In this document: one piece after another, positions 454-33,298 of the stretch | How the letters are laid out: each line of letters starts with the position of its first letter | Numbering within the stretch: the stretch's first letter is position 1 | Origin: Deltaproteobacteria bacterium HGW-Deltaproteobacteria-1 | GTDB lineage: Bacteria; Desulfobacterota; Syntrophia; Syntrophales; Smithellaceae | DNA length: 48,190 nt | Direction of reading: 5' to 3' | Assembly: GCA_002840635.1 (NCBI GenBank) | Contig: PHBN01000002.1 | Location: 1 to 48,190, forward strand | Position numbers and translations under genes: made by a program | Notes under the pieces: model-generated | Database searches by the model: none | What the model was told of the DNA's origin: nothing | The model's input: only the letters and a program-made list of their open reading frames with translations

Positions 454-808
454 GGTTTTTTCTCCTTTCTGCTATGGTTGTTTGGGATATTCAACTTTAA
501 CAGATCGAAAATACCATGTCCTCTCCTATCTTCCTTATAGTAAGCTGAAAGAGAGCCTCAGGCAATTTAGATAAGCATACCCCCTTCAGCCAGAATTCAT
601 TAATGTTGGCTTTTGTTTAAACTGGATAAATATTCCACAAATTACCTGCCGGGCTTTTGGTCTTTATTACCGTGAAATGCCCAGTGCCATAATTTCATTT
701 CATTTGATTTTAAACATTATTTTAATTTTTATTTTTCTTAAAAAGAGTATAAAGATAACAAAATATCGGAAATTACCGGCTAAGTATATTAATCGTTATG
801 GATAAAAG

Positions 809-1090
809 ATGATGAATAATATTATTTCTATCGTTGTTTCGCTTTTGACTTTAACACACGTCGGTATTCTACTTGTGATAGTAGGTACTGCGTTCCTAGC
901 TTATGCAGTAAAGGTCGAAAATAAATACACACTTTCCGCAAGAAGTAAGGAAAATAAAAAACGATTAGAAGACATTGTTAAAAGATCAGAAGATGGGTCA
1001 TACTATGAACCATCTATCGTTCGTGTCGATAAAATATTTTTTAGGTTGGGCCTTGCATTCGTGGCTTTAGGTAGCCTAATGCAATGGTAA
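809..1090 (+). CDS. small membrane protein (cassette ORF)
   Basis: 93-aa ORF with hydrophobic N- and C-terminal segments around a charged loop. AT-rich and followed by a degenerate attC. Confidence 0.5.
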   Translation: MMNNIISIVVSLLTLTHVGILLVIVGTAFLAYAVKVENKYTLSARSKENKKRLEDIVKRSEDGSYYEPSIVRVDKIFFRLGLAFVALGSLMQW

Positions 1091-1112
1091 AAATATGTTA
1101 AAAAAATAAAGA

Positions 1113-1166
1113 TATATAAAATAAATGCGGTTATTCGCTGCGCTCTGGCATTGCTTTACGTTGCTG
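1113..1166 (+). repeat. attC-like site (degenerate)
   Basis: TATAAAATAAATGCGG..TTCGCTGCGCTCTGGCATT..ACGTTGCTG. It shares the central CGCTGCGCTC loop with the sites at 7096 and 10602. The R' core is GTTGCTG at 1160-1166, and the R'' core lacks the AAC. Confidence 0.45.
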
Positions 1167-1196
1167 TGAACCAAATGAAATTGAAGAAGGCTCTAT

Positions 1197-1988
1197 ATGA
1201 AAAAAATAATAGTTTTTGTTTTATTTATCATTACATTCAATTACGTCATCTATAATCAAACAGCTTTTGCTGAGACTATTATTCATTCAGCCTTATATGG
1301 TTTCTCAATTAACATTCCGGATGATTGGTCTAAAAGGAAACCAACAAAATCATGGACATATTTAGTCTATGCAAATATTGAATCTGGCGCGAATATGAAT
1401 ATAAACGTTATAAATGCAAAGGGTCTTTCTTCAATAAAACAACCAACATTGGGACAGATTTTCAACCCATACTATGAACATGCTAGAATAATAGAAAAAG
1501 TTTATGAAACTGATTCCTCATCAAACATTGATTTTTTCAAATGCGTATATAGATGGGAAAATGGTGAATTTAGAAATCAGTATGAAGGAAAGCATAGATT
1601 ACAGTATTATGCAGTGCAATGGGTTAAAGACGAAAAACTATTTACTTTAACCTTTACAGATTCTGAAATAAATTTTCAAAATAATATTCAAAAATTTAAA
1701 AGAATAGCCAATTCCATTAAATTCGATAAGATCAGTGGTGAGGAATGGGAAGGGGGAAAAATGCTTATAGAAGAGAGAGGAAAAGTTATAGCTGCTTGTG
1801 AAAAAGGCATATTAAGTCAAGGCTATTCCTATGTTAAAGTACAAAAATATTGTAAGTGTTCTGTGGATTATATTACAGAATTAGCAAATAAATATTCTAA
1901 GGCACAGTTAAAAGCATTACAGAAAGAAAAAGGGGGAAACTTTATTGAAAAAGATGCGCTTCAAATGTGTAAGCATTATTTGGAGTGA
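1197..1988 (+). CDS. secreted protein of unknown function (cassette ORF)
   Basis: 263 aa with a signal-peptide-like N-terminus, MKKIIVFVLFIITFNYVIYNQTAFA/ET. Followed by an attC. Confidence 0.7.
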   Translation: MKKIIVFVLFIITFNYVIYNQTAFAETIIHSALYGFSINIPDDWSKRKPTKSWTYLVYANIESGANMNINVINAKGLSSIKQPTLGQIFNPYYEHARIIEKVYETDSSSNIDFFKCVYRWENGEFRNQYEGKHRLQYYAVQWVKDEKLFTLTFTDSEINFQNNIQKFKRIANSIKFDKISGEEWEGGKMLIEERGKVIAACEKGILSQGYSYVKVQKYCKCSVDYITELANKYSKAQLKALQKEKGGNFIEKDALQMCKHYLE

Positions 1989-2005
1989 AATTACTTACAT
2001 TAAAT

Positions 2006-2072
2006 CCATAACCCGTAGCTAGAGCCGATCGCAAGCCCGCTGGGCTGCTCCGGTTCAGCTTTTCGATTATGG
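2006..2072 (+). repeat. attC site (R' core mutated)
   Basis: R'' is CCATAAC at 2006-2012. The R' position reads ATTATGG at 2066-2072, so it matches the reverse complement of R'' except that G is replaced by A in the GTT triplet. Confidence 0.65.
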
Positions 2073-2081
2073 GATAAAGAA

Positions 2082-2576
2082 ATGAAATATATTTTTATAC
2101 CAATAACGATGTTCGTGTGGTTCTTGACTTCTTTTTATGGAATACATATCGCAGCTATCGGAATGGCATTTATTTTTTCACTAAGTTGGCTATGGGTAAT
2201 AATTGGGTTCCCATTCCTGATAGTACCAATTTTTTGGATTTCACATAGTATCCCTTCTCTGTTGCGTGTATTATTTATTAAGATCTACGGAGTATCCTGG
2301 TTTTGTTGCATTGTACATTCGCTCGCCGGGGTTATTGGGCTTGTCGGAATAATAATGTTTTATAGCGAAAGTCCGCCGGTACTGGTAATTGGGGATGAAT
2401 CATTTTTCATTTTAAGAGGAATGTGGAAGACCGCGCCATTCAAGACAGTATTTATTGCTATACCATTCCTGGGGATTGTAATTTCCATACTTTGGTCAAG
2501 TATTATTGCACCCATATACATTAAGCTATCTGGTGTTCAGATATCAGATATAGAAAAAGATAAACAAAACCCATAA
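2082..2576 (+). CDS. polytopic membrane protein (cassette ORF)
   Basis: 164 aa, almost entirely hydrophobic helices. The stop codon lies inside the R'' core of the following attC. Confidence 0.7.
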   Translation: MKYIFIPITMFVWFLTSFYGIHIAAIGMAFIFSLSWLWVIIGFPFLIVPIFWISHSIPSLLRVLFIKIYGVSWFCCIVHSLAGVIGLVGIIMFYSESPPVLVIGDESFFILRGMWKTAPFKTVFIAIPFLGIVISILWSSIIAPIYIKLSGVQISDIEKDKQNP

Positions 2577-2626
2577 CAAGGGCAATACACCCGATCGCTA
2601 CGCTCCGGGTGATTTTTTCGTTGGAC
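2571..2626 (+). repeat. attC site
   Basis: R'' is CCATAAC at 2571-2577. The stem is CACCCG/CGGGTG around an ATCGCTACGCTC loop. R' is GTTGGAC at 2620-2626. Confidence 0.8.
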
Positions 2627-2643
2627 GATAGAAGGAGCATAAG

Positions 2644-3420
2644 GTGCCTAAACCAGAAGTACGGGATGTGTTACTGCAGGTCATTTCGGAGTGCGCTCCC
2701 AAAAGGCCTGGAGACAGTAACCTTCAGTCGCGGAGCATCCTCACTGAAGTGCGCGACCGACTTGGTGGCGCTCGCGATCATGTTCTGGAGGAAGCGATTC
2801 TGACTGCCTTCCATGATCTGCTTCGAACCGGATACCTTGCTTGGGGATTCAACCTCGCTAACCCCGACCCTCCATTCTTTCATCTTACCGAGCAGGGCAG
2901 GAAATCACTAGCTAACTTGAGTCGCGATCCAAGCAATCCGGCCGGTTACTTGGCTTCGCTCTCTCAGGCTGTGACATTGAATTCGATTGCAGACGCCTAT
3001 CTTCGGGAGGCTCTCGCGTGCTTTGTAAACGATCTTCCGAAAGCGTCGGCTGTCATGGTCGGCGGTGCATCAGAAAGTATCGCTCTTGAACTCCGAGATG
3101 CAGTTGTTGGGAAGCTGCAGTCGATGAACAGAAACGTTCCAAGAGGTATGGATGATTGGCGTTTGAAGGTTGTGCTGGATGCCATGTATTCATTCCTTGA
3201 TCAGAACTCTGGGCAGATGAAAAAGGAGCTACGGGATTCGTTCAGGTCTTATTGGTCTGCCTTTTTGCAGCAGATCCGCACGGCTCGGAATGACGCAGGT
3301 CATCCTTCCAGCGTTGATCCGGTTACGTTCGATACAGTTCACGCATCACTTTTGATTTTCCCGGAGCTAGCCAAACTCACGTTTGACCTTCTCCAATGGA
3401 TCAATCATGAGTACAAGTAG
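2644..3420 (+). CDS. HEPN-like protein (R-x4-H motif) with an N-terminal wHTH-like region; cassette ORF
   Basis: GTG start preceded by GAAGGAG. 258 aa. The motif RNDAGH (R215-H220, nt 3286-3303) sits in a helical C-terminal half and fits the HEPN R-N-x3-H signature. The ORF is visibly more GC-rich than neighbouring cassettes. The function is inferred from this motif alone. Confidence 0.6.
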   Translation: MPKPEVRDVLLQVISECAPKRPGDSNLQSRSILTEVRDRLGGARDHVLEEAILTAFHDLLRTGYLAWGFNLANPDPPFFHLTEQGRKSLANLSRDPSNPAGYLASLSQAVTLNSIADAYLREALACFVNDLPKASAVMVGGASESIALELRDAVVGKLQSMNRNVPRGMDDWRLKVVLDAMYSFLDQNSGQMKKELRDSFRSYWSAFLQQIRTARNDAGHPSSVDPVTFDTVHASLLIFPELAKLTFDLLQWINHEYK

Positions 3421-3432
3421 CAAAGAAGAGGC

Positions 3433-3487
3433 GTCCAACATTTAGCTGCACCAGATTCGGGCGAAGGAACGGCCCTCTATGTTGAGC
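3433..3487 (+). repeat. attC site
   Basis: R'' is GTCCAAC at 3433-3439 and R' is GTTGAGC at 3481-3487. Both match the canonical consensus. The cassette start TTGGAC at 2621 is the exact reverse complement of GTCCAA. Confidence 0.85.
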
Positions 3488-3519
3488 AATTTGTTATACG
3501 CCAAGAAAGCGGAGGAATA

Positions 3520-4854
3520 ATGCCGAGAGTATTTCTCAGTTATTCACACGAAGAGCCAGAACATGATCAATGGGTCATGGATTTGGGGAAGCTGCTTCGG
3601 GAGAACGGGGTTGACGCGTACCTTGATAAGTGGGATCTGATACCGGGGCAAGATACAACCTACTTCATGGAATCTCAAATAAGAGACTCCGATTTTGTGA
3701 TTCTCATATGCACGCCTATTTATGCTGATAAATCTAATATCCCCCGTGGTGGTGTAGGTTACGAAAAGAACATTATCTCCGCAGAAATGTTACAGGCTAA
3801 CGATTTGCGCCCAAAATTCATCCCAGTTTTGAGAAGAGGAACGTTCGATAGCTCCTTGCCCACCTACCTTGGGAGCAAGTATGCCGTAGACTTTCGAGAC
3901 GATAAGGAACAACAGAATGCACTTGATGAATTACTTAGAGCCGTCTATAAACAACCTCATCCTGAGAAACCGCCTCTTGGATCCAACCCCTTTAACCAAC
4001 CCGTCACCCTAACTGTCGACTCATCAATGATTGCAGTGAAATCATCCGACCTTAAGCTTGAAGTCGTTCAGCAAGATCAAGACATTCATGTATGGGAAAA
4101 AGAAGCACGCGGACGTTTCGAGTATCTTTGTGCGAGTAGACTGAACAAAGAGAAGGTAAACCCTTTCGCTGACGGCTTTTGGCAAGCCAGCTTCGTTCTT
4201 CTGTCTAAGCCTGATATGAGTGGCCTCAACAAGTTTTTAGAACAGCTTAGGGCATCCGAAACGCACCGAACCGGGTGGGATATTGGGTGGGTACCGACTC
4301 GTTCTGGGATAGCACCATATCCATACCAAGGCGGAATCGAAGTCTGGCTAGCTGAGGATGGTGACAAGGGGCCAAGCCACTCAGATTTCTGGCGCGCCGA
4401 ACCGGTGGGCCGTTTTGCTTTGTTCAGGGGTTATCAGGAAGATGACTCTGATTTCCAACATCAACTTAACTTGAAGGAGAGAATCATCGATTTCTCTTTG
4501 ATCCTGTGGCGCATATCAGAGCTTCTTCTGTATATTGATAGCTTCGCAAAACAGATGTCAGTTGGAGATTCCATGGCAGTTCTGAAGATAGCATGGACAG
4601 CTTTGAATAACCGAAGGATTGGTTATCACAAGGCAGACTTCGATAAGATATATGAAAACTACATTTGCTGTCAGGACACGGTAGATTCAATGTATAAAAT
4701 TCTATCATGCGCTAATATTAAGAAGAATCTGATACACGATGTACATGAAATCACCTTACCACTTTTCGAAGCCTTTAACTTCTTCTCAGTATCGGAAGAA
4801 CAAATCAAAGATCATATAGCAAAGCTGTTCGATCCAGAGAAAGAGGGCGTATAA
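3520..4854 (+). CDS. TIR-domain protein with an uncharacterised ~300-aa C-terminal domain (cassette ORF)
   Basis: GGAGG lies 6 nt upstream of the ATG. The N-terminus MPRVFLSYSHEEPEHDQWVMDLGKLLRENGVDAYLDKWDLIPGQD...SDFVILICTPIY follows the typical bacterial TIR pattern F-[LI]-S-Y-S. I recognise no motif in residues ~150-444. Confidence 0.8.
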   Translation: MPRVFLSYSHEEPEHDQWVMDLGKLLRENGVDAYLDKWDLIPGQDTTYFMESQIRDSDFVILICTPIYADKSNIPRGGVGYEKNIISAEMLQANDLRPKFIPVLRRGTFDSSLPTYLGSKYAVDFRDDKEQQNALDELLRAVYKQPHPEKPPLGSNPFNQPVTLTVDSSMIAVKSSDLKLEVVQQDQDIHVWEKEARGRFEYLCASRLNKEKVNPFADGFWQASFVLLSKPDMSGLNKFLEQLRASETHRTGWDIGWVPTRSGIAPYPYQGGIEVWLAEDGDKGPSHSDFWRAEPVGRFALFRGYQEDDSDFQHQLNLKERIIDFSLILWRISELLLYIDSFAKQMSVGDSMAVLKIAWTALNNRRIGYHKADFDKIYENYICCQDTVDSMYKILSCANIKKNLIHDVHEITLPLFEAFNFFSVSEEQIKDHIAKLFDPEKEGV

Positions 4855-4905
4855 CCATGGCATCCACCGGACGGCTAAAACCGCCGGTGATGCCTGCCGT
4901 TGGCC
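4849..4905 (+). repeat. attC site
   Basis: R'' is GTATAAC at 4849-4855. The stem is GGCATC(C)ACCGG/CCGGTGATGCC with one unpaired C. R' is GTTGGCC at 4899-4905. Confidence 0.75.
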
Positions 4906-4922
4906 GCCGCGCTGCGCGCTTC

Positions 4923-5138
4923 GGCCAACGGCGGAACTAAGCTACCGCTTTTCAGTTCCTTTTTGGCGCCTGACAATCTATGCGTTTTATGATAATGCAG
5001 TGTATATAAAATAATTATTAGGCCTTGCGCGCTGATTCGCACGACGCCAACAAGTCACTGAAGTCGGTTGGCATTTCACATGCAAAGGAAGCTTCGCTTC
5101 CAGCATGTTAATGCCACCGCTTAGTTCCGCCGTTGGGC
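4923..5138 (+). repeat. composite or over-long attC-like structure (ORF-less interval)
   Basis: GGCCAAC-GGCGGAACTAAGC at 4923-4942 is the inverted repeat of GCTTAGTTCCGCC-GTTGGGC at 5119-5138. The 176-nt interior contains further hairpins. Confidence 0.45.
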
Positions 5139-5143
5139 ATACA

Positions 5144-6214
5144 ATGGTAACTAGAAAAGAACTAACTGAAAGAATAGAGAATATGAGTAGTAATTCTTAT
5201 GATGCCGTTTTCTATAATTCTTTTGTTCTGCCACGTGAAGCGTTATCAATATTAGCCTTTGTATATGATAAAATTCATTTGCCAGGTGTGCATATAAACA
5301 TTAATGGATTAGACAAAAATGAACTATTTAAACAGATTGAATCAATCAGGAAAGGTGGAATTCGTGATACAGACACTTTAGATCAATACCACGCTATGAT
5401 AACTGCATTAATTTATTCATATTGCCCATCTGTATTTCAACTTTCAAAACATGAGAGAAAAGCTTTTGGCTCACTCGAAGATGGTGCAGGAAATTTAGCC
5501 AAAGAAATTGAAGAACTTTACTTCGGTCCTCCCAAGCCAGGATTTATTCCCACAATAGCAACCGGTCATTGTGTACCTCTTCCAGGAGGTGCTTTCATAG
5601 ATGTTCCAGCAAAATGGACTTACCCAGCTAATTCATTAATTTATTCGTCGCAAGAACATTTGCCGCTTATAACCACTGATCCCACAATGCCGATTCCTGG
5701 ATTACCGTCTGAAGTAAAATCAAACGCCAAAATATTATCTACAATTTTAGCAATGGAGTGCATCAAGCTTGTTTTGCCAAATATAAAAACTATTGAACCT
5801 TGGGAAATTGAAGAAATTAAAGAAAAGACAAAAGAATATTTTGTACCGTTTAAATTGAGGATGTTGAAACTTTCAAAGGTATTGAATAGTGCCATATCTT
5901 CTAGTTCAACGACAGACGAAATAATAAGAGAAGCAAAATTTATATTTGAATCTGAAGTGGAACCAGAAATGATTGAGTTAAAAACAGCTATATCTCATTC
6001 TGGGCAACCCTGGCATAAAAGACTGATTGATTTGACAAAAGATATACCGCAGTTAGTCTTAGGATTCACTACGCTACCATCAAATATAGCAATTGCTAAT
6101 GTCCTAGCAAAGCTCGGAGTATTTTTCTCGGATATTCGAAGTGAACAATTATCAAAAGACGAGGCCAGAAAACGCGGAGGGCTATATTATCTATTAAAAC
6201 TCTCTCAAAAATAA
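5144..6214 (+). CDS. hypothetical protein (cassette ORF)
   Basis: The ORF-track start at 5105 falls inside the attC arm. The first ATG after the G|TTGGGC junction is at 5144 (MVTRKELTERI...). No recognisable motifs. Confidence 0.65.
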   Translation: MVTRKELTERIENMSSNSYDAVFYNSFVLPREALSILAFVYDKIHLPGVHININGLDKNELFKQIESIRKGGIRDTDTLDQYHAMITALIYSYCPSVFQLSKHERKAFGSLEDGAGNLAKEIEELYFGPPKPGFIPTIATGHCVPLPGGAFIDVPAKWTYPANSLIYSSQEHLPLITTDPTMPIPGLPSEVKSNAKILSTILAMECIKLVLPNIKTIEPWEIEEIKEKTKEYFVPFKLRMLKLSKVLNSAISSSSTTDEIIREAKFIFESEVEPEMIELKTAISHSGQPWHKRLIDLTKDIPQLVLGFTTLPSNIAIANVLAKLGVFFSDIRSEQLSKDEARKRGGLYYLLKLSQK

Positions 6215-6222
6215 TAAAAATT

Positions 6223-6285
6223 ACCCAACAAGACGCTTCACTGGACCCGGCAAACAGCGCCGGTCCAGTGAGCTTCTCGTTAGGC
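6223..6285 (+). repeat. attC site
   Basis: R'' is ACCCAAC at 6223-6229. The stem is GCTTCACTGGACCCGG/CCGGTCCAGTGAGC with unpaired bases. R' is GTTAGGC at 6279-6285. Confidence 0.85.
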
Positions 6286-6291
6286 AGGAAT

Positions 6292-7074
6292 ATGGAAAAC
6301 ATCGTTCCTAAAAAGGTGTTTCTTGATAACTGTATTGTCAGTATTAGTGACACTGTGCAAGGTGCCCAGAAAAGCACCAAGGTCAGCTGGGGTGGAAAAG
6401 AGCATACAATTCAGGTTTCTGGGTTTGAGGGAAAACCATTACCCAGGGACGACGAGGTCTGGAAACGAGAGCAGATTGAATGTATGCCAACCATCGGGAG
6501 ACTGGCAAGACAGAACGTTATTGCTTTATCTATATACGTGGAAATCCAGTTCGAGGGGTGGAAACGTCCTAGGTCATTTCCAGCTACCGCCATCGGAAAT
6601 GTGTTTAACGGAATAGAATTCGAATATGTAGATGCCGCTGTTGAGAGGTCATACTTTTTTCAATCTTCACTGGATGATCATATTGATAACCAAAGAATGA
6701 TTGACTTTTGCAAGTGGCTATTGAAGATCAATCCGGATATTTTAATTGAAAAAATCATGAAGGCTAGGGATTTTCCCGATTTTTTATTAATTAATTTAAG
6801 GAATGTTGAGAGATTCAGAGAGCTCTGCAAGGGGTTGTCTGAGAAGCAGTATCCAGATGCATTCCACCTCTGGACTGCTGAGGTCAATGGTGCGGATTGC
6901 TTCTTAACCATTGACAAAAAATTTATTCGGGTAATGACTGAAACAAATAAAGCAAAGATGCCTTGTCCGCCACTTTCACCGTCTCAACTGCTTGACGAAC
7001 TAGAAATACATGAAAGAGATCCTATTGAATACGTGGAGGGAGCCTTCTATGACATATTCGGGAGGCGTAGCTAA
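6292..7074 (+). CDS. putative PIN-like domain protein (cassette ORF)
   Basis: The first ATG after the cassette junction is at 6292. The N-terminal VFLDNCIV and C-terminal DAFHLWTAEVNGADCFLTIDKKF resemble the first and last acidic motifs of PIN domains. This is weak, motif-level evidence only. Confidence 0.5.
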   Translation: MENIVPKKVFLDNCIVSISDTVQGAQKSTKVSWGGKEHTIQVSGFEGKPLPRDDEVWKREQIECMPTIGRLARQNVIALSIYVEIQFEGWKRPRSFPATAIGNVFNGIEFEYVDAAVERSYFFQSSLDDHIDNQRMIDFCKWLLKINPDILIEKIMKARDFPDFLLINLRNVERFRELCKGLSEKQYPDAFHLWTAEVNGADCFLTIDKKFIRVMTETNKAKMPCPPLSPSQLLDELEIHERDPIEYVEGAFYDIFGRRS

Positions 7075-7095
7075 CATGAGTGGTATTCCGGCCTT

Positions 7096-7167
7096 GCCTA
7101 ACAATTTGCTGCACGCGGCAAAATTACTCGCTGCGCTCCTAATTTTCTGGTGAGCAAAGCGTTAGCA
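7096..7167 (+). repeat. attC site
   Basis: R'' is GCCTAAC at 7096-7102, the exact reverse complement of the junction GTTAGGC at 6279. The stem is TTTGCT(G)CAC/GTGAGCAAA with one unpaired G. R' is GTTAGCA at 7161-7167. Confidence 0.8.
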
Positions 7168-7174
7168 AAAATAT

Positions 7175-7915
7175 ATGAATAATAAATTAAAACACTGCTA
7201 TGACCAGATTCATCAGATACTTGGCAAAGATATTGAACCTTATGAGTCTGTTGAATTGGTGGAGAGATATCGCCAATATTGGAAACCAACGGGCAAAATC
7301 AGAGTCATTCTTTTGGCTGAATCACATGTATTCACAAGCGATGATGACCGAAAGATTAAAATACCTCAGTTACCCAATCTGCCTGGCTACGAAACACAAT
7401 ACGCAAAATTTGTCTATTGCATTGGCTACGGAGAAAGACTATTGACAGGAAATCCTTCACATCCTAAACGCGATGGCACACCTCAGTTTTGGAAAATATT
7501 TTATAGCTGTGACAATCTTATTCAAGAGAAGAATGATTTCCATCCGATTTTATCAAAAACAAAATATGAACAAAGAGTAGAGAATAAAATCAAACTTTTA
7601 TTGCGCCTTCAGCGGAACGGCATTTGGCTCATCGATTCAAGCATCGTCGCGCTATATAACAACGGAGAAAAACCTAATAATAACATCATTTCATTGGTTA
7701 TAAGAAAGTCATGGGATTGCTATATCCATAATGTAGTCGCAGAGGCAAATCCGGATTATGTGATTTGCGTTGGCAAAACCGTCGCAAACGTCTTAAAGCG
7801 CGACATTGAAAAGTTAGTTGGTAAACGTTGCACGGTTTTATCCCAACCAAATGCACATCTTCTTTCAGAAGAACATATGGCAAACTTTAGGCAATACAGC
7901 AGAATATGCCGCTGA
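7175..7915 (+). CDS. hypothetical protein (cassette ORF)
   Basis: 246-aa ORF starting 8 nt after the cassette junction. No motif recognised. Confidence 0.7.
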   Translation: MNNKLKHCYDQIHQILGKDIEPYESVELVERYRQYWKPTGKIRVILLAESHVFTSDDDRKIKIPQLPNLPGYETQYAKFVYCIGYGERLLTGNPSHPKRDGTPQFWKIFYSCDNLIQEKNDFHPILSKTKYEQRVENKIKLLLRLQRNGIWLIDSSIVALYNNGEKPNNNIISLVIRKSWDCYIHNVVAEANPDYVICVGKTVANVLKRDIEKLVGKRCTVLSQPNAHLLSEEHMANFRQYSRICR

Positions 7916-7926
7916 CATTAATTTAA

Positions 7927-7983
7927 TGCTAACAAATCAGTATAGCGGACTCGCTACGCTCCCCGCTGATTTCGTAGTAAACT
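7927..7983 (+). repeat. attC site (R' core non-canonical)
   Basis: R'' is TGCTAAC at 7927-7933, the exact reverse complement of the junction GTTAGCA. The stem is AATCAG..AGCGG/CCGCTGATT and the loop contains CGCTACGCTC. The R' position reads GTAAACT at 7977-7983, so the GTT is lost. Confidence 0.7.
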
Positions 7984-8001
7984 CATAAGGGAGAATTAAG
8001 A

Positions 8002-8439
8002 ATGAAATTATTTTTAAAGGCGACTCTAGTATTGCTACTATTTATTGTTTGCGGGTGTGCTACAACACCAGTCAGACATTCTGATGCGATTAAAGTCCCC
8101 CCAGATCGGGTACTTTCTTATCAAGATGTAAATAATAAAACTACGTCCGCAATTGTTATTACAAGAGATGAAGGGTACTTAGGGTCTGGTTGCTATTACG
8201 CTGTTTTTATTAATAGTATATTATCAGCACGATTCAATCCTGGAGAAACTGCAAAATTTTCTATTGAACCTGGAGAAATAATTTTAAAAGTAGGTAGGGA
8301 TCTGCTAGGGAATGGTTTATGTGGCGTCGGACAAGATGAATGGACACAAAGAGAAACAATATTGCGCGCGCATGAAACTAAATATTTTCGTTTAACGATA
8401 GATGTAAACGGTAAAACAGATATACAAAGGGCAGATTAA
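8002..8439 (+). CDS. putative lipoprotein (cassette ORF)
   Basis: 145 aa with the signal-plus-Cys segment MKLFLKATLVLLLFIVCGCATT. GGGAG lies upstream of the start. Confidence 0.7.
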   Translation: MKLFLKATLVLLLFIVCGCATTPVRHSDAIKVPPDRVLSYQDVNNKTTSAIVITRDEGYLGSGCYYAVFINSILSARFNPGETAKFSIEPGEIILKVGRDLLGNGLCGVGQDEWTQRETILRAHETKYFRLTIDVNGKTDIQRAD

Positions 8440-8518
8440 ACAAAAATATCTAAAAGAATATTTTAGATCATGATAGTCCATAGTTTGAGGGGACATTGGG
8501 ACGAACAAAAAATAAAGC

Positions 8519-8574
8519 GTTTAACAAAGGCAACACAGCCAATCGGTGCGTTCTGGGTAATATTTTCGATAAAA
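8519..8574 (+). repeat. attC site (R' core non-canonical)
   Basis: R'' is GTTTAAC at 8519-8525. The body is homologous to the attCs at 2571 and 8897. The R' position reads GATAAAA at 8568-8574. Confidence 0.6.
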
Positions 8575-8619
8575 GTAAAAAACATAGACTAAATACAATA
8601 TCTAAGAGGAAACAACGGT

Positions 8620-8853
8620 ATGCAAATTAAAAACATAATCTTAGCTATTTTCATTGTTACCGTTCTTGTAGGTTGTGCCCATTACAAGACCACCTTGATC
8701 AATGCGCAGGGAGAGAAGGTGATATGCGAGGCAAACGGAAAGAGTGGCGCCATTAGTGGCTATCATCTGCGCCAAGGATTCGAGGCCTGCATCAACGCTG
8801 CAAAAGCCCAGGGATTCAAAGAAGTATCTCCAATGAATTTAAAACCCGAATGA
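8620..8853 (+). CDS. small lipoprotein (cassette ORF)
   Basis: 77 aa with the lipobox LVGC in MQIKNIILAIFIVTVLVGCAHY. An AGAGGA ribosome-binding site lies upstream. Confidence 0.7.
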   Translation: MQIKNIILAIFIVTVLVGCAHYKTTLINAQGEKVICEANGKSGAISGYHLRQGFEACINAAKAQGFKEVSPMNLKPE

Positions 8854-8896
8854 GATAAAGGCAGGGTTCCATCTAAATTGACATATGAACAAAAAC

Positions 8897-8952
8897 TTTT
8901 AACAAAATCAATACAACCGATCCGTACGATCCGGATGAATTATTTGTTATGT
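8897..8952 (+). repeat. attC site
   Basis: R'' is TTTTAAC at 8897-8903. The body is AATCAATACAACCGATCCGTACGATCCGGATGAAT. R' is GTTATGT at 8946-8952. Confidence 0.75.
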
Positions 8953-8972
8953 GGGGAAGGTGAGAATCTAGA

Positions 8973-9749
8973 ATGAATTATTCTTCAATTATAAATCAAT
9001 TTATAGGTGCGACATGGTATTTTATACTAATCATAATTTTGGTAATTATAATAAAATCTTCTCGGTTCAAAGGCATAACGGGCGAATTCATAGTAAACAT
9101 CTTGGCAAGGATGTTTCTAGATAAGCATGTATACCATCTCATCAAAAATGTGACATTACCAACCGAAAATGGAACGACTCAAATTGATCATATTATTGTT
9201 TCAAAATATGGCGTATTCGTGGTTGAAACAAAAAATATGAAAGGGTGGATTTATGGTGACCCTGACCATCAGACGTGGACTCAAAAGATATACAAGCATT
9301 CAACTAAATTCCAAAACCCTCTTCACCAAAACTACAAGCACCTAAAAACTCTTGAATCCCTTCTTGGACTGAATGATCAGCAGGTTCATTCATTGGTTGT
9401 TTTTGTTGGAGACAGCACTTTCAAAACGGAAATGCCAGAAAATGTAACATATGGCCGCGGTTATGTTCGATTTATCAAATCAAAAATACAGCCTGTCCTC
9501 TCTGAAACAGAGGTTGATGCAATCTTAAGTAAAATCGGCGCCGGCATGTTAACGCGCTCATTTAAAACCAACAGCGAGCATGTAAAACATGTCAACCATA
9601 TCGTAAGCGAAAAGAAGAAGGAAAATACGTGCCCAAGATGCGGTAGCCCCATGGTGTTGAGAGAAACGAAAAATGGTCAAAATGCCGGAAAACAGTTTTT
9701 GGGATGTTCAAGATATCCAAAATGCAAAGGTGTTTTAAATATCACATAA
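8973..9749 (+). CDS. NERD-domain nuclease-like protein with a C-terminal topoisomerase-type C4 zinc ribbon (cassette ORF)
   Basis: It has an N-terminal TM segment and the NERD core IDHIIVSKYGVFVVETKNMKGWIYG. The C-terminus CPRCGSPMVLRETKNGQNAGKQFLGCSRYPKCKG forms the zinc ribbon. The stop codon lies inside the attC R'' core. Confidence 0.85.
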   Translation: MNYSSIINQFIGATWYFILIIILVIIIKSSRFKGITGEFIVNILARMFLDKHVYHLIKNVTLPTENGTTQIDHIIVSKYGVFVVETKNMKGWIYGDPDHQTWTQKIYKHSTKFQNPLHQNYKHLKTLESLLGLNDQQVHSLVVFVGDSTFKTEMPENVTYGRGYVRFIKSKIQPVLSETEVDAILSKIGAGMLTRSFKTNSEHVKHVNHIVSEKKKENTCPRCGSPMVLRETKNGQNAGKQFLGCSRYPKCKGVLNIT

Positions 9750-9808
9750 CCCATCGCTAAGTCTGATCGCGGTCCTGTGGGTCGCTCCGGCTTAACTTTT
9801 CGTTACAC
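9744..9808 (+). repeat. attC site
   Basis: R'' is ACATAAC at 9744-9750, the exact reverse complement of the junction GTTATGT at 8946. R' is GTTACAC at 9802-9808. Confidence 0.8.
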
Positions 9809-9872
9809 CTTTCAAATAGATACAGCAGCTTAGGACACTCAACGAAAGCAACAATTAGACAAAGTTTTTTAA

Positions 9873-10607
9873 ATGGGATGGGACAAATTGATAATTGACA
9901 CAAATTTTAATTTCTACTCCGATTCAAATGGCGGTGACCCTGACAGCACCAGTCCAACACTTCGTAGATACCATAAGATGCTATGGAGTAAACCATTGCC
10001 AAATGGCAGCCTATTTGAATTATTTGACAATAAAAATGATGCTTATTTATATCATAAATCAGGACTTGGAGAATTTTTTTTTGGTAGCGATGCCATAACA
10101 CACTTGTATAAAAATCATAAGAGGAAGCAGTGGCTTACAGAACAAATTCCCAGAGAAGTAAATGAACTTTTTGATACAGGTTCTACTATTGGAGCTTATA
10201 TTGTTTTCCCAAATAGAATTGACTGCAAGCATACAATCAATCAGGCGCGTGGAGTAAATAGTTTAATTGATGATAGATTTGACTTAACGTTAGAATGTAT
10301 TCGTCTTTTTTATCTGGGCCAAGAGAATCCTCTTTATTCCAGTTTATTGAGATATAAAGAATTCTTCGATTTGTTTAGCGATTTTATGGGCTACATCCAT
10401 TTCTTCTTATTGGATGATTTGATTGATGAAAATAGTGATATTAGATTTTATTTGCCATTTGATGGCTTCAAAACTCGTCCAACATTTTCAGATATTGGCC
10501 AATATCTATTATACAAAAAAGGAGTAATAAATTTTATTAAGTCAAGAAATAAACGAATAGAAAATTATATAAAACCACAAAAGACCGAGCATGATACCAG
10601 CACATAA
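9873..10607 (+). CDS. hypothetical protein (cassette ORF)
   Basis: 244-aa ORF whose stop lies inside the next attC R'' core. No motif I can name with confidence. Confidence 0.7.
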   Translation: MGWDKLIIDTNFNFYSDSNGGDPDSTSPTLRRYHKMLWSKPLPNGSLFELFDNKNDAYLYHKSGLGEFFFGSDAITHLYKNHKRKQWLTEQIPREVNELFDTGSTIGAYIVFPNRIDCKHTINQARGVNSLIDDRFDLTLECIRLFYLGQENPLYSSLLRYKEFFDLFSDFMGYIHFFLLDDLIDENSDIRFYLPFDGFKTRPTFSDIGQYLLYKKGVINFIKSRNKRIENYIKPQKTEHDTST

Positions 10608-10674
10608 CAAGGCGCTTCACTCGGACGGCAATTCCGCTGCGCTCCATTGCCGCCAGTGAGCTTGGTCGTAAACC
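10602..10674 (+). repeat. attC site (last recognisable; R' core non-canonical)
   Basis: R'' is ACATAAC at 10602-10608. The arms GCGCTTCACTCGGACGGCAA / TTGCCGCCAGTGAGC are close homologues of the attC at 6223. The R' position reads GTAAACC at 10668-10674. Confidence 0.7.
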
Positions 10675-11049
10675 TTTCAATTGGAAAGAAACACTTAACC
10701 AGACACAACAGTATTGCGACATTGTAGGTGGCGTCAGCAATAGGCGTCCCTATTTTCTTCTTCAGAATCATCCACAAAGTACTGGTTGTAAGGTTGAGTT
10801 TTTGGACATTGGATGCGACTTACAGGATGAAAGATGCGAATGGCTGATAACTGATTTTCCGCTTCTGCTGCTGGCCGCTGCCTTACTGTAAGAGAGTGTG
10901 TAAAATTTTTTACTGATGTTATTTCTTTATGTTGTGAAAGAAATACTTTCACAATAACCTTAATGTTTGCTTAACAAATAAGTTTTCAGTTTGGTGTTTT
11001 TTTACCAAAACAACGATGTAGTGTTCAACAGAAAAGGTGCCCCGAGTAA

Positions 11050-12015: not shown

Positions 12016-13944
12016 TCAAATATAATAATAAAGAGGTAACTCCAATGCAATATCCCATTTTTTATAAACATACAGTTTATAACTACCCTCATACCCGGAT
12101 GGCCCCCACATAGGAATTATGCCCTTTTTATCTAAACAGTTAATCAAATGACTAGGCGACACATTCCATACCTTTACGATGTCCTTTGCGAAAACAGTTG
12201 TGGCAATGAATTTATTCAACGATTGGAAGGAAATTTTGGTAATATAATGGCGACCCTTCTTGCTAACTTGTTTGATCTTCTGCAACAGTCTCCTCTTCAT
12301 AAAGAAATGCACTGTTTCTTCTTTGACTTTCAGTATTTCTGCTGCCTTCTTTAGAGTGAGAAACCTTTCTTTCCCGGCCTTGTTCTCCATTGCACAACAA
12401 TCTCTGATTTGTTTCTCGCTGATAACAAAACCTGCGTTTTTTTCTTCGTTAGTTTTTCCAAAAGGAACTATTTCACCGTTGCGAATTAATTGCACAAAGT
12501 AGCGTGCCCGAAAGTGCAGAGGAGAGAATCTTTTGGCTGTTGCCTGAAATCTTAGTTCTTTCGATGAATCCATATCATCGTTATCAAAAATTCTATACTC
12601 AATATCTCTCAATAAATCCTTTATGTTTTCGATATCAAATTTCCAGCTTTTGCGATGATCAACACCTGGCCCTTGTTTAGGTCGTACACAACCTAATTGT
12701 ATTAAATCTGACAATACTTTTTTGCCAATGCCCAATCGTTCAGTTACATCCTTAAATAGAAGGAGAGTCCTGCTTTCAGTCTTGGTAGATGTGCGTTGCG
12801 GTCTGATTAAAAATCTCTTTTCTATCGGTTTTTTTTCACCGAAATAATTTAATTCCGCATCGATATCAGTTTTTCGACCAGACGTATGAAAACGGTGAGT
12901 GAAACAGATACTGTGATTGGAAATCAACCAGTTTTCAGAGACAATGTGTTTTCGGTTGAGAGAGTCAGTGGAAAAGTAGCCACCGTCCCAGCGATTCATC
13001 AAATAGTGCTTATACTCGTCTCTCATGAAATCAAATTGTTTGGATGTTAATTCATTGTGCAATGCTCTGTGAAAAGCTCTAAATTCTCTTCCTATCCCTC
13101 TGGGTGTCCTGATATTTGGGTTCTGGCCTCTGATATGTTCTAAAAATTCGTAGTAATTGTTCGGCCAATCGTCAAAAACGTGATAAGCTTTCAAGAGAAG
13201 CTGGTGAATTTGTGAGTTTGTCAGAATCGATCCTTTATAATGCATACCATAACGATCATATCGACTTGCCACTGCAAAAATTGCGGAAGTTACGCCTTCC
13301 AGACTGAGTCTGGAGAGTGCATTAATCGATTCACTATCTTCGTAAGTATTTGTCGTCAAGTTGCAAAGCTGGTATATCAACAGGGAGAGTGACGTTTCAT
13401 GTTTTTCAACGATGGGCGGAGATATGTCGAGCCAATTGCACCCACATCGACAGGCGCCAAGCTCCCTCCTGTTCCATGATATAGCCTTCCTGCAGTTGGG
13501 GCATTTGTCCAGAAGGACTATTTTATGATTGGGACAGATGGTTACCGGAACAAGGTCCCACGCCCAGCGTATGTATCCGGTTTCGCGGATGCATGCCGGA
13601 CATATCTTCGGATGCGCCAACCTTAGAAGGCAGCGCATTATTACTCCACCACAAGAAATCAATTTTACATTAGAGGTGCTTCCCCGTCTTGAAGCTGGTT
13701 GATACATCAGCGCCTTCAAGGCATTGACAGAGACACCAAAAAACGGTGCGAGAGGGGAAATATCTATGGATTTTGTAAAATAGTTTGTGAAGAGCTTCTT
13801 CTGGACAATTTTGCTTATTAGCCACTGGGGATTTTCATACCCGTTGATTTCTGAGATCCTCAGAACGTAACCCAGAAAATTCTCATCTGGCATGGGTCTT
13901 GGTGTCCTTAATAGTTTTAAAGATTCTGCCATGTGGGTGTTCAC
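12016..13944 (-). CDS. tniQ: TniQ/TnsD-like target-selection protein (642 aa)
   Basis: The N-terminal TniQ signature is PRPMPDENFLGYVLRISEINGY. A Cys-rich zinc ribbon reads CPACIRETGY...CPNHKIVLLDKCPNCRK. The long C-terminal extension has HTH-like stretches (VTERLGIGKKVLSDLIQLGCV and LKKAAEILKVKEETVHFFMKRRLL). The start overlaps the tnsC stop. Confidence 0.85.
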   Translation of the reverse strand: MNTHMAESLKLLRTPRPMPDENFLGYVLRISEINGYENPQWLISKIVQKKLFTNYFTKSIDISPLAPFFGVSVNALKALMYQPASRRGSTSNVKLISCGGVIMRCLLRLAHPKICPACIRETGYIRWAWDLVPVTICPNHKIVLLDKCPNCRKAISWNRRELGACRCGCNWLDISPPIVEKHETSLSLLIYQLCNLTTNTYEDSESINALSRLSLEGVTSAIFAVASRYDRYGMHYKGSILTNSQIHQLLLKAYHVFDDWPNNYYEFLEHIRGQNPNIRTPRGIGREFRAFHRALHNELTSKQFDFMRDEYKHYLMNRWDGGYFSTDSLNRKHIVSENWLISNHSICFTHRFHTSGRKTDIDAELNYFGEKKPIEKRFLIRPQRTSTKTESRTLLLFKDVTERLGIGKKVLSDLIQLGCVRPKQGPGVDHRKSWKFDIENIKDLLRDIEYRIFDNDDMDSSKELRFQATAKRFSPLHFRARYFVQLIRNGEIVPFGKTNEEKNAGFVISEKQIRDCCAMENKAGKERFLTLKKAAEILKVKEETVHFFMKRRLLQKIKQVSKKGRHYITKISFQSLNKFIATTVFAKDIVKVWNVSPSHLINCLDKKGIIPMWGPSGYEGSYKLYVYKKWDIALELPLYYYI

Positions 13945-14945
13945 CTGCGCAGTATTTCCGCCACGCGTCTTTTGCCTCCGTGCCTTGCGGCGTCGGATGA
14001 ATTGTGGAATGACTGTTCCAGCGATGGAATATTTAGGTTTTCATGGTCTACCAGGAAGGGATTGGACATCGTGTTGCTCAATGCGAGCTCATCGTTGTAG
14101 GCTAAGGCAAGCGCTTCTGTGGTTACGCGATCGAGATTTTTCACGTAAGCGATTTCAGCAGCTTTGCTGATCAATTTTTTTATGTACGATACTACTCCTT
14201 TTGTGGCACAGAATATCCGCAATGCAATTTCATTCGAATGCAGAATCGATGGCTGTGGAAAAAATGTTGCTTTCTCTATCATGATCAAGAACCGGAGAAA
14301 ATCGTCTCGCTCTTTCACTGGATTCCAGTTGAAGGCCTTGAGTTCACATATATTCGCAAACCTTCTCATGAGTTGGGGGTTTACCGTCAATATTGAGTTG
14401 GCATTTGGCATGCCCATCAGCACTATGGGGACCTTTGTTCGGTTTAAGACGTCTTTCAGCCAGTCGGCCGTTGACCTCAACACCCTGTCGGAGTCTCGGT
14501 CGATCAAATGCTGAAACTCGTCGAGAATAATTAGTTCGACTTTACACTCTTTTATCAGCCTGCAAAGTCGGCTGGTCATGTTGATTGTCGTCCCTCTGTC
14601 GTACAAGGGGTCGCCGAGGTCCTCAAGGAGCCTGCATGCTAGGCCCTTGATGGTTGCGTTCGACGGGATCATCGAGTAAAACACGGGAACGGTGGTTCCG
14701 TCTTTGGAGACCACCCTCGCGTATTGCCCCACGTAATGGTTAGCTATGGTGGTCTTGCCATACCCTGTATTGCCTATGAGCAGCATGCATTTCGGTTCGG
14801 TCGTGAGTTTCGACCTTTCATGGCATTCCCTTATCATGGCTATTGCCTGTTTGAAGGATGGAGAGAGGACTATTGTGTTTTCTATGTGTCTTATCTTTTT
14901 GTTGATCGACATCCCTGTTTCTTCCACTGCCTGGTATTGTCGCAT
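13941..14945 (-). CDS. tnsC: TnsC/TniB-like AAA+ ATPase (334 aa, short TniB-sized form)
   Basis: Walker A is LLIGNTGYGKTT and Walker B is LIILDEFQHL. AAGGAGGG lies upstream of the ATG at 14945. Confidence 0.9.
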   Translation of the reverse strand: MRQYQAVEETGMSINKKIRHIENTIVLSPSFKQAIAMIRECHERSKLTTEPKCMLLIGNTGYGKTTIANHYVGQYARVVSKDGTTVPVFYSMIPSNATIKGLACRLLEDLGDPLYDRGTTINMTSRLCRLIKECKVELIILDEFQHLIDRDSDRVLRSTADWLKDVLNRTKVPIVLMGMPNANSILTVNPQLMRRFANICELKAFNWNPVKERDDFLRFLIMIEKATFFPQPSILHSNEIALRIFCATKGVVSYIKKLISKAAEIAYVKNLDRVTTEALALAYNDELALSNTMSNPFLVDHENLNIPSLEQSFHNSSDAARHGGKRRVAEILRR

Positions 14946-17183: not shown

Positions 17184-17833
17184 ATCTTTTCCTCCCCACA
17201 TTTCATTGAATTGAGCAAACAAGTCACTATAGCGGTGTTGTTAATTTCTTTGCGGAGGTCCAGTGACAATATCCCATGTCGGAGCAGTGCGAAAACCTCT
17301 TGCTTCAAAAAACCCCGTGAGCCCATCAAGCCGACGATTTCACCAAAGGGCATGTTTTCTCTGTTCGATAATATGTCGTTTAGGCTAAGCAGGTGGCTGT
17401 CCGAAATCGGAATCATGGAATATTTCTGCAGTAGTTTCACGTTGTCGAGAAGGGGCTGTTCCCTGATCATGCTGTCGGTAACGACCATGAATTCATAACC
17501 TTCGCGGTATATGACCGGAGCGACGCGTTGAAACAATTGACGGCAATCATCACTTTTTGCGGTTTTGTCGTCCTTGACTTCCACAACCTGGACCCGGTTT
17601 CCAACCCTTGTAACCAGGAAGTCCGGGGTGTATCGATGGATTTTACTGTCCCTGTCGTCATGGTACCTTACGCAAACTGATTGTTCTTCAAAAGATATGA
17701 CCTCCGGATCGAATTCCAACAAATATATGTAATCGCGCTCGATTTGGGATTCCCACATCACCATCCTGCCCATTTTTTGGCTGGGGAACTTCCCGATCAC
17801 TTTCCTGCCACCGTTTGTAATTTTTCTAATCAT
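17180..17833 (-). CDS. tnsA: TnsA endonuclease
   Basis: WESQIERDYIYLLEFDPEVISFEEQ...YTPDFLVTR...VQVVEVKDD matches the TnsA N-terminal restriction-endonuclease-like fold with its E/D/ExK residues. Confidence 0.85.
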   Translation of the reverse strand: MIRKITNGGRKVIGKFPSQKMGRMVMWESQIERDYIYLLEFDPEVISFEEQSVCVRYHDDRDSKIHRYTPDFLVTRVGNRVQVVEVKDDKTAKSDDCRQLFQRVAPVIYREGYEFMVVTDSMIREQPLLDNVKLLQKYSMIPISDSHLLSLNDILSNRENMPFGEIVGLMGSRGFLKQEVFALLRHGILSLDLRKEINNTAIVTCLLNSMKCGEEKI

Positions 17834-18829: not shown

Positions 18830-19255
18830 ATCTGTCTATATTATCAGTTCGGCGCACCGAACTAACAATTTGATAATGAATACAACTGTGTAGCTTGATT
18901 GTAATGTTTTTTATATCCATCGCTGCTGGTATTGGTGGGAGAAGATAGATGAGCTTGATTTCGCTTACAAATACCAGAGTCGTCTTTATGCCGTGGAGGT
19001 CAAATCCTGAATTTACCCCGAAAAATGTACCAAGTTCAAATTAAGTCTTTGCTCCTGTTGAAGTCAAATTTTTTCGACCTCAAAACCTGAACAATTTGTA
19101 AACCAACAAATTAACGGTTATTTGTCAATATATCGTTAATATAGAAATGAAGATGAGATAATTAACGGCAAATGTTTCTCATGGGAGGCCTGTTTTGGAA
19201 ATCCTCTTCGGGAAAAAGGGTTGGTATCTTCGGCAGAGTGGGATGACAGGGGGAT

Positions 19256-32308: not shown

Positions 32309-33298
32309 ATGATAGAAAAGATCGAACCCATCCCCAAATATATTCCTGAATCGCTCCGTCTCGCAGCGATTCAGAGAAAGCTCATTCCGTTTATTGGCGC
32401 AGGGGTCTCTCAACTCGGAGGCTGCCCAAACTGGTGTGAATTTGCCGATGCCTCTCTTAATTTTTTTGTTGAAAAAGGGAAGTTGAATCATGCCCAACTT
32501 GCCCAAATTGCGCCTCTTTCTTCTCGGGTGAAGTTGTCTGTGGCTCTGGAGCTTGAAAAGCAGCACAATCTTCGCATCGACTTCAAGAAATTGCTGACAC
32601 CGTCCGGGGCCAAGAAAAAAATCGGGAATGAGGTTTATGCGAACCTCTCAAGACTGGCAACTACTTTTGTTACGACAAATTATGATGATTGGTTGGACCA
32701 AATTCCACCAGAACCTTTGCGGGCTGATGATCTGGCACCTTCTCAGTCACTGCCACTTGGCACAACACGCCATTGCTTTTACAAACGCAACGATATCTCT
32801 GTTGAGAACCTGGACGTCCCGAATGCAGTGTTCCACATACATGGTTCTATCCGTGATCGAGATAGCATGGTGATAAGGACTGTCGACTACCTCGATTGTT
32901 ATTCAAGCCATAGAATTGATGGAAAAGAGAATCACGAAAATGCGTTCCTGACATTTCTACAAACGCTTTTCCAGTTGAAGAATGTCCTATTCATTGGTTA
33001 TGGCCTTAATGAGATGGAAGTCCTTGAGTACATTGTTCAGAAGGGGATCCGGAAGCCAAAAACTGATGAGGAACCAAGACACTACGTTCTGCAGGGTTTT
33101 TTCACGCACGACTTGGAACTCGCACGCAGTTTGGAGAGCTATTTTCATGAGTTCGGGATCGGGTTACTTCCATTTTCACGTGACGACTGTAATTGGGATC
33201 AACTGATTGCTGTCATTGACTACCTTGCCCGGGAGATTCCCCCTGGTCCACCATTGGCTTTGCCAAAACGCCTCGAAATGGAGGAGTTACTATCGTGA
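32309..33298 (+). CDS. SIR2-like (SIR2_2-type) NAD-utilising domain protein
   Basis: The motifs are LIPFIGAGVSQLGGCPNW, FVTTNYDDWLD (N124), VFHIHGSI (H178) and VLFIGYGLNEMEV, in the order and spacing typical of defence-associated SIR2 domains. Confidence 0.85.
   Translation: MIEKIEPIPKYIPESLRLAAIQRKLIPFIGAGVSQLGGCPNWCEFADASLNFFVEKGKLNHAQLAQIAPLSSRVKLSVALELEKQHNLRIDFKKLLTPSGAKKKIGNEVYANLSRLATTFVTTNYDDWLDQIPPEPLRADDLAPSQSLPLGTTRHCFYKRNDISVENLDVPNAVFHIHGSIRDRDSMVIRTVDYLDCYSSHRIDGKENHENAFLTFLQTLFQLKNVLFIGYGLNEMEVLEYIVQKGIRKPKTDEEPRHYVLQGFFTHDLELARSLESYFHEFGIGLLPFSRDDCNWDQLIAVIDYLAREIPPGPPLALPKRLEMEELLS

Follow-up and report, generated by a model that had tools for sequence, protein, structure and literature searches.

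Integron gene cassettes in the cargo of a Tn7-like transposon, an array probably assembled at an attI-like site without a local integrase

How does an array of integron gene cassettes come to lie where no integrase is encoded? The question is raised by a 48,190 nt stretch of Deltaproteobacteria bacterium HGW-Deltaproteobacteria-1 (contig PHBN01000002.1, positions 1 to 48,190; hereafter the window), in which an earlier note had described a cassette array at 809-10674. We found that cassettes with canonical attC sites are joined there head to tail by G|TT crossovers at one conserved site. In our reading, to which we give a probability of roughly 80%, the array is a group of clustered attC sites that lack an integron integrase (CALIN) of ~12 cassettes, carried as cargo of a 42.8-kb Tn7-like transposon and put together, at an orphan site resembling attI, by an integrase that acted in trans. 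CALINs carried by Tn7-like transposons are already known in kind, and only the recurrent orphan attI-like platform may be new.

attC sites and cassette boundaries

In 796-10,674 the + strand carries all substantial open reading frames (ORFs), and behind each of them comes an imperfect palindrome starting with ..AAC and ending with G-TT... We delimited twelve junction sites (B to M) and a decayed look-alike 3′ of the first ORF at 1108-1166; the 13 attC-like sites counted in the earlier note are thus the twelve junction sites and this look-alike. R″ ends with AAC in 12/12 sites, while R′ is GTT in eight of them and GAT, GATT or GTA in the other four. The sites are 54-94 nt long, share a mean column identity of 54%, and fall into at least three visible subfamilies.

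The first 6 nt of each of the 12 cassettes were compared with R″ of its own attC, with the crossover placed at G|TT. Eight of the pairs match exactly and two at 5/6 positions (Table 1). The seven core pairs quoted in the earlier note are all present where it placed them, and the exact pairs of cassettes 1 and 4 can be added to its list. Summed over the four variable positions, 41 matches were observed versus 19.4 ± 3.8 when the pairing was permuted (maximum 35; 0/100,000 permutations reached 41), while R″ and R′ of the same junction gave a sum of only 21. A high match with the cassette's own start together with a low match within the junction is what one would see if the TTRRRY half were part of the next cassette. 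Complementarity between a cassette start and its own R″ therefore offers an internal test that can authenticate a cassette array from the sequence only.

For an assessment by structure, a covariance model was trained on only 12 bona fide class 1 integron attCs, none of them from the window (those of aadB, aadA1, aadA2, psp, blaVIM-2, aacA4, estX, cmlA1, dfrA27, aadA5 and dfrA5, and the attC 3′ of an ORF with a DUF1010 domain); the integrons were taken from public plasmids using IntI1 as the query. Class 1 sites were used for training because MAFFT alignments of the window sites were too poor for modelling, and circularity was also avoided in this way. The model carries the R box, the L box and two unpaired positions, and was run with filters off; as it is self-built from 12 sequences and is not that of IntegronFinder, its E-values are rough. 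At E<0.1 it matched eight sites, all on the + strand and all inside 2006-10673, with no further match at E<0.2 anywhere in the 48 kb. When the search was limited to the array, ten sites matched at E<2. Site K was weak (10.8 bits, E=0.36 in the array-only search), as was site D (8-11 bits, strand ambiguous), and the model did not pass site L (7 bits), site J or the remnant at 1108-1166. These last three look decayed, and the alignment puts them in the same subfamilies as scoring sites: J resembles sites C and K and folds poorly, and L appears as a decayed member of the subfamily that holds site B and the attC of locus L020.

In ~123 kb of control plasmid DNA the model matched cassette attCs only, and the arr-3 attC, which is outside the training set, scored 18-29 bits, in the same range as the weaker window sites. 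The + strand scored far above the − strand (e.g. 37 versus 9 bits). Both unpaired positions of the model on the R″-L″ arm are filled in the matched sites, the A of 'GA' is conserved, and DNA folds of the window sites are bulged stems, in agreement with the unpaired bases that had been remarked before. Rfam and tRNA scans of the window gave nothing. Because the model scores the sites and the complementarity exceeds chance level, the sites are attCs, and the proposal of a genuine cassette array assembled at G|TT holds.

In sequence and structure, sites B-M are of one family with the attCs of mobile class 1 integrons. They share with the estX, aadA, aadB, blaVIM-2, cmlA1 and other such sites the R″/L″/L′/R′ layout, the unpaired R″-L″ bases and the CGCTGCGCTC loop, and differ in that several have decayed cores (GAT or GTA for GTT) and weak stems. 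Site H is close to the estX attC over its full length, with a near-identical layout. The loop CGCT[A/G]CGCTC is indeed present in exactly five copies, on the + strand only and in the array only. The earlier note had regarded such homogeneity as characteristic of sedentary chromosomal integrons; however, the CGCTGCGCTC loop also occurs in the mobile class 1 cassette attCs of blaVIM-2, estX and dfrA27 and hence says nothing about a sedentary integron.

A conserved block and right flank around the cassettes

To the left of the array no integron integrase gene is in view, as the earlier note had said. A tblastn search with IntI1 (query sequence 100% identical to database copies) over the window and 5.6 kb further left (53.8 kb) gave a best E of 0.36 and revealed no intI or intI remnant, and Pfam found no tyrosine recombinase or Phage_integrase domain in the larger ORFs of the window. 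The locus thus combines two or more attC sites <4 kb apart and, over 4 kb around them, the lack of an integron integrase, which defines a CALIN, and lacks the intI adjoining the array that defines a complete integron. Like other CALINs (PMC4889954; IntegronFinder 2.0, PMC9024848), it consists of co-oriented attCs <4 kb apart and promoter-less ORFs with no intI nearby, and the functions of its cassettes are mostly unassigned. It differs from them in its conserved right flank and in the attI-like block that it abuts, which is conserved and recurs next to other cassettes; in the literature cited here we did not find a recurring integrase-less site described for CALINs.

Copies with 91-96% identity to the 253-bp block directly left of the first cassette occur in locus L017 and, as a search with a 27-nt probe showed, in eight loci from metagenomes and from the metagenome-assembled genome (MAG) Deltaproteobacteria bacterium ADurb.Bin151. 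The copies represent six independent contexts. In 6/6 of these the homology ends at G|TT and is followed by a different first cassette, starting with TTATGG, TTGGGC (two different cassettes), TTGGCA, TTGTGC or TTGGCT, and in five of the six the start matches R″ of its own attC at 6/6 positions. In the L021 group and in L027 (junction G|TTTCAATTGG) the last attC is directly followed by a right flank that is 83-88% identical; this flank was probably, at the outset, the right half of the insertion site. Overall, 1, 2 or 12 cassettes stand between the conserved left block and the conserved right flank, so that the locus behaves as an attI site does. An empty platform is predicted to read ...GTATATTAATYG|TTTCAATTGGAAAGAAACAC....

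All block copies share one left boundary and so go back to a single ancestor that lacked an integrase. No integron integrase was found beside any block copy in the upstream sequence fetched (roughly 0.1-6 kb). The cassette differences thus arose with the integrase already absent, for which a trans-acting integrase would be needed. The left edge of the block was also considered as a recombination junction (CTTCC|TG); this was dropped for the simpler reading that the block begins with CTTCCTG just upstream of 545.

Two further repeats were seen near the platforms. In the L021 group, imperfect direct repeats of ~26 nt (TTCAACGCTT.ACA..GCCTTCC) stand on either side of the platform, at L021 2917-2942 and 3926-3949. 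A paralogue of the first 17 nt of the block (CCTT[C/A]CTG[A/T]AAGAGAGTG...) lies downstream of the arrays, at 10882-10900 in the window and at 1128-1165 in L023.

The Tn7-like transposon and the insertion sequence

An exact-protein look-up gave contigs that reach 5.6 kb further left, among them L001, which is identical to the window over 11,988 nt. Together with the window they delimit a transposon of 42,810 bp (L001 4130 to window 41293) with TnsA, TnsB (DDE), TnsC (AAA+) and TniQ/TnsD, TGT...ACA termini, spaced repeats on the left and contiguous ones on the right, and the 5-bp target duplication TAGCC on both sides. The left-end repeats, which resemble TTGCGCATAAAATGAAATTAT, lie at −1509 to −1380 in window numbering, and at least three TnsB-type repeats are present per side versus 0.01 expected by chance. 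The transposon has an hflC-like gene on one side of its insertion point and a tetR/hlyD/ABC operon on the other. The left extension leaves it and carries hflC-like, GIY-YIG, acyltransferase and DEAD-helicase genes, and the flanking genes have their closest named relatives in Smithella, Smithellaceae and 'Deltaproteobacteria' MAGs. The host is a Smithella-like syntrophic deltaproteobacterium and the array is chromosomal. An exact-protein look-up aimed at an empty Tn7 attachment site returned the same strain only.

Since the array lies within transposon ends flanked by a 5-bp duplication, it is mobile cargo and no sedentary chromosomal integron. The remaining cargo forms a defence island with a type I restriction-modification system, a split Dsr1 and toxin-antitoxin modules, to which the bSEFIR of cassette 4 adds. 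The context of the array is thereby corrected: it is carried, as mobile cargo, by a Tn7-like defence island of an anaerobic syntroph that is uncultured. Of Tn7-like transposons, 10% are reported to hold an intact or partial integron (PMC8649781), and the Tn7-like elements of that study (Benler et al., 2021) carry defence systems too. As in Tn7 with its class 2 integron, the array occupies the cargo between tniQ/tnsD and the left end, in the same relative position. In contrast to Tn7, an intI2-like gene or pseudogene is missing, environmental cassettes (bSEFIR, NERD, DUF6994) take the place of resistance cassettes, the host is an anaerobic syntroph, and cargo lies on both sides of the tns operon.

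An IS110/IS1111-family insertion sequence (IS) adjoins the 253-bp block on its left, with ~250 bp between it and the first cassette junction. The whole IS is ~1.6 kb (L001 ~4568 to window 544), its boundaries being given by the empty site in L017, and its full transposase in L001 has 426 aa with Transposase_20. L017, whose TniQ is 90% identical, has the same flanks without the IS. The earlier note had placed this IS in the position of the integrase; however, its removal leaves just ~570 bp between the Tn7 left-end repeats and the first cassette junction. As L017 lacks the IS and so short a stretch cannot house intI, the IS has not taken the place of an integrase and is incidental.

As in IS1111-type elements (PMC11187229), the transposase gene is followed downstream by a long non-coding region. 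This region spans 251 nt (L001 4568-4818), is predicted to fold strongly (−76.8 kcal/mol), and is a candidate seekRNA; no target match of at least 7 nt was found in this 3′ non-coding region. The IS1111-attC group (Tetu and Holmes, 2008), as far as it is described in PMC11187229, is likewise an IS1111-type element associated with a cassette array, with the difference that the present IS is at the start of the conserved block and not within an attC as in that group. The left ends of the window and of contig L003 both fall within the IS.

Several other traits of the transposon were recorded. The large cargo on both sides of the HTH-tnsABC-tniQ core (HTH, helix-turn-helix) is unusual, and TniQ is a protein of 642 aa with a C-terminal HTH_17/MerR-type domain. 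The split Dsr1-like system, at 32309-40910, pairs a SIR2 protein of 329 aa with a 946-aa protein that matches the rest of Dsr1, and is followed by a 1,576-aa protein for which Pfam and PADLOC gave no match. A sequence of ~50 nt (CTTACCCCGAAA.ATGTACC...) just inside the left end has an inverted copy beside the HTH gene next to tnsA (window 19005-19057, L001 4299-4347, L017 4877-4919, and L027), and marks where homology among related transposons ends. In a related MAG (L018 17570-17802) just 14 bp lie between a transposon left end and the right end next to it, so that Tn7-like elements of this family also occur in tandem.

Origin of the array and its cassettes

In the mechanism that we favor, an integron integrase whose gene lies elsewhere in the cell, or on a co-resident element, would recombine the single-stranded, folded attC bottom strands of circular cassettes with the double-stranded attI-like site. 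Cassettes would enter one at a time at this site, and possibly also at resident attCs, and TnsABC-TniQ would then move the whole array between genomes. CALINs are established (PMC4889954), as is the insertion of cassettes at non-att GWT sites by IntI in trans (bioRxiv 10.1101/2022.09.11.507474). The attG sites and single attC sites lacking integrases (SALINs) of the latter study (Loot et al.) resemble the present locus in that non-integron DNA receives cassettes at G|TT (or G|AT, G|TA); as such joining takes place without a local integrase, the integrase must act in trans. The attG sites are numerous and degenerate, whereas here a single site flanked by 253 bp is reused, as an attI would be. 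The degenerate cores (GAT or GTA for GTT) and the decay of J, L and 1108-1166 suggest that part of the array is probably frozen now.

We further propose, tentatively and at slightly less than even odds, that the block and the ~70-bp right flank form a portable orphan attI in Tn7-like transposons and islands of Smithella/Syntrophales-type bacteria, filled from a community pool by a trans-acting integrase. If this is true, the cassette store is separated from the recombinase, and some CALINs would be active platforms relying on integrases in trans, not just debris of dead integrons. It would also bear on the spread of cassettes, including bSEFIR-type defence genes, into lineages and elements without an integrase.

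Several observations weigh against an active attI-like platform served in trans. The block does not score as an attC in the model and contains no promoter-like consensus, nor is there a + strand sigma-70 consensus in 454-1180, where host rules may differ; its putative attI function is read from comparisons of junctions. In L023 the first 'cassette' has no recognizable attC. No integron integrase was identified in the organism, in a scan that covered the window and 5.6 kb to its left. The closest relatives by TniQ (79-90% identical; L017-L019) have no array beside tniQ, and L017 carries the block and one cassette elsewhere in the element, away from tniQ. Among contigs encoding the same proteins, L002 equals L004 at 100% and L003 differs by 32 substitutions and 2 gaps; these contigs of the same population have identical cassette content, and a direct sign of ongoing cassette movement was not found.

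Other origins of the array fare worse. That the palindromes are repetitive extragenic palindromic (REP)-like repeats or transcription terminators rather than recombination sites might be supposed from imperfect hairpins 3′ of ORFs, but the permutation test on own-cassette complementarity and the strand-specific attC model matches refute it, no Rfam family was recognized, and the stretches scanned (454-1300, 4850-5200) hold no terminator-like sites; we regard its probability as practically negligible. A decayed complete integron, in which an intI/attI left of the array was destroyed or displaced by the IS110-family insertion, as the earlier note implies, would account for the transposase gene directly left of the array and would agree with the view that CALINs arise partly by loss of intI (PMC4889954). 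However, L017 has the block and its left flank with neither IS nor intI there, the ~570 bp between left-end repeats and junction remain once the IS is subtracted, no IntI-like remnant appears at E<0.3 in the 53.8 kb, and the platform copies with upstream sequence fetched have no integron integrase beside them, which makes this origin very unlikely. A sedentary chromosomal integron with its integrase outside the window is hardly credible: the array is chromosomal, with 12 cassettes mostly of no assigned function and five sites with one loop motif, but it sits inside transposon ends with a 5-bp duplication, the 5.6 kb further left holds housekeeping-type genes and no intI, and the attCs are heterogeneous, their common loop being found in mobile class 1 attCs as well.

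The cassettes might instead be moved by a non-canonical recombinase, for which the candidate is a pair of overlapping tandem Xer-like tyrosine recombinase genes (383 aa and 297 aa; L027 5370-7320, − strand). The pair adjoins the block in one MAG (L027), 85 bp upstream and on the same strand, in a layout that resembles 'inverted' integrons. Both proteins, however, lack the additional domain specific to IntI (TIGR02249 112 and 80 bits versus a cut-off of 265, with the match split in two), and their family has >7,700 close homologues, mostly on 1-3 kb contigs, with near-identical copies in thousands, which is the behavior of a separate mobile element. The pair was not found in the window, L017 or the L021 group, nor in L020 and L023, where the upstream sequence covers only ~120 nt; the same MAG has a recombinase fragment near its other platform copy, but this one is unrelated (27% identity), and the attCs of the array are canonical IntI substrates. 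We therefore rejected the pair as platform integrase for its lack of an IntI domain, its multi-copy family and its inconsistent linkage. It looks like an abundant separate two-recombinase mobile element of Syntrophales-type bacteria; servicing of the platform by a non-IntI recombinase is unlikely, and movement of these cassettes by such an enzyme is highly improbable. An IntI acting in trans remains our preferred explanation.

The coordinates of the cassettes and of the transposon are collected in Table 1.

Table 1. Features of the cassette array and of the transposon that carries it. Positions are those of the window unless L001 is named. Fractions give the matches between a cassette start and R″ of its own attC; bits and E-values (rough) are from the self-built attC model.
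Feature	Position	Strand	Details
Conserved 253-bp block	545-797	+	ends exactly at first G|TT (G795, TT796-797); putatively attI-like
Cassette 1	796-2066	+	ORFs 809-1090 and 1197-1988 (PsbP-like, Pfam); decayed attC-like remnant 1108-1166; attC B; TTATGG(796)/CCATAA(2006), 6/6
Cassette 2	2067-2620	+	ORF 2082-2576, 164 aa, no assigned function; attC C; 6/6
Cassette 3	2621-3493	+	ORF 2644-3420, weak DUF4145 (Pfam); GC 0.51; attC D 3433-3499, weak; 6/6
Cassette 4	3494-4899	+	ORF 3520-4854, TIR/SEFIR; attC E; TTATAC(3494)/GTATAA(4849), 6/6
Cassette 5	4900-5132	+	ORF-less; 94-nt attC and inverted copy of attC 3′ arm 4923-4942; 6/6
Cassette 6	5133-6279	+	ORF 5105/5144-6214, no assigned function; attC G; 5/6
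Cassette 7	6280-7161	+	ORF 6292-7074, no assigned function; attC H; 6/6
Cassette 8	7162-7974	+	ORF 7175-7915, no assigned function; attC I; 6/6
Cassette 9	7975-8568	+	ORF 8002-8439; decayed attC J 8519-8574, R′=GAT; 2/6
Cassette 10	8569-8946	+	ORF 8620-8853, 77 aa; attC K 8897-8952; 5/6
Cassette 11	8947-9802	+	ORF 8973-9749, NERD nuclease (Pfam 4e-34) with Top1-type zinc ribbon; attC L 9744-9808; 6/6
Cassette 12	9803-10667	+	ORF 9873-10607, DUF6994 (Pfam 3e-87); attC M; 3/6
Conserved right flank	10668-10736	+	G|TAAACC TTTCAATTGGAAAGAAACAC...TTGTAGGTG
attC B	2006-2072	+	16 bits, E=0.07
attC C	2571-2626	+	19.6 bits, E=0.008
attC E	4849-4905	+	31.4 bits, E=5e-6
94-nt attC of cassette 5	5045-5138	+	28 bits, E=4e-5
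attC G	6223-6285	+	37.2 bits, E=2e-7; opposite strand 9 bits
attC H	7096-7167	+	42.1 bits, E=8e-9
attC I	7927-7980	+	16.3 bits, E=0.06 (model match 7927-7979); R′ degenerated to GTA
attC M	10602-10674	+	33.4 bits, E=2e-6 (model match 10602-10673)
IS110/IS1111-family IS, right part	1-544	−	transposase start codon 453, gene exits window left; Pfam DEDD_Tnp_IS110 2e-21
tniQ	12016-13944	−	Pfam TniQ 8e-14
tnsC/tniB	13941-14945	−	Pfam TniB 2e-30
tnsB	14964-17222	−	Pfam Mu-transpos_C and rve
tnsA	17180-17833	−	Pfam Tn7_TnsA-like_N
Transposon right end	41223-41298	−	three contiguous 21-nt TnsB-type repeats 41223-41286; ...ACA terminus 41293; TAGCC 41294-41298
Transposon left end	L001 4125-4266	+	TGTAAC... 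terminus, four 21-nt repeats, TAGCC; 1,516 bp left of window start

The composition of the cassettes is mosaic, as had been pointed out before, with GC ranging from 0.325 to 0.512 and the GC-rich ones being cassettes 3-5. The cassette 4 protein matches Pfam TIR_2 (6e-21) and SEFIR (2e-13), and PADLOC assigns it to the anti-phage defence family bSEFIR (222 bits). In cassette 5 the terminal inverted repeat matches at 19/20 positions, and no promoter-like consensus was found (scan 4850-5200); this cassette may be a relic of an inverted attC × attC event.

The DUF6994 protein of cassette 12 has >2,700 close homologues, of which the 120 best listed are 73-92% identical; those among the matches listed come from MAGs named Atribacteria, Chloroflexota, Spirochaetota, Euryarchaeota and Halobeggiatoa. 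In L033 a homologue stands inside another attC array with a group II intron reverse transcriptase and an IS110-family gene, and in L029 and L030 a partial attC lies directly 3′ of the homologue. The presence of DUF6994 homologues at other attCs and in MAGs named as very different phyla indicates that the cassettes belong to a widely shared pool, and the DUF6994 gene itself is exceptionally mobile.

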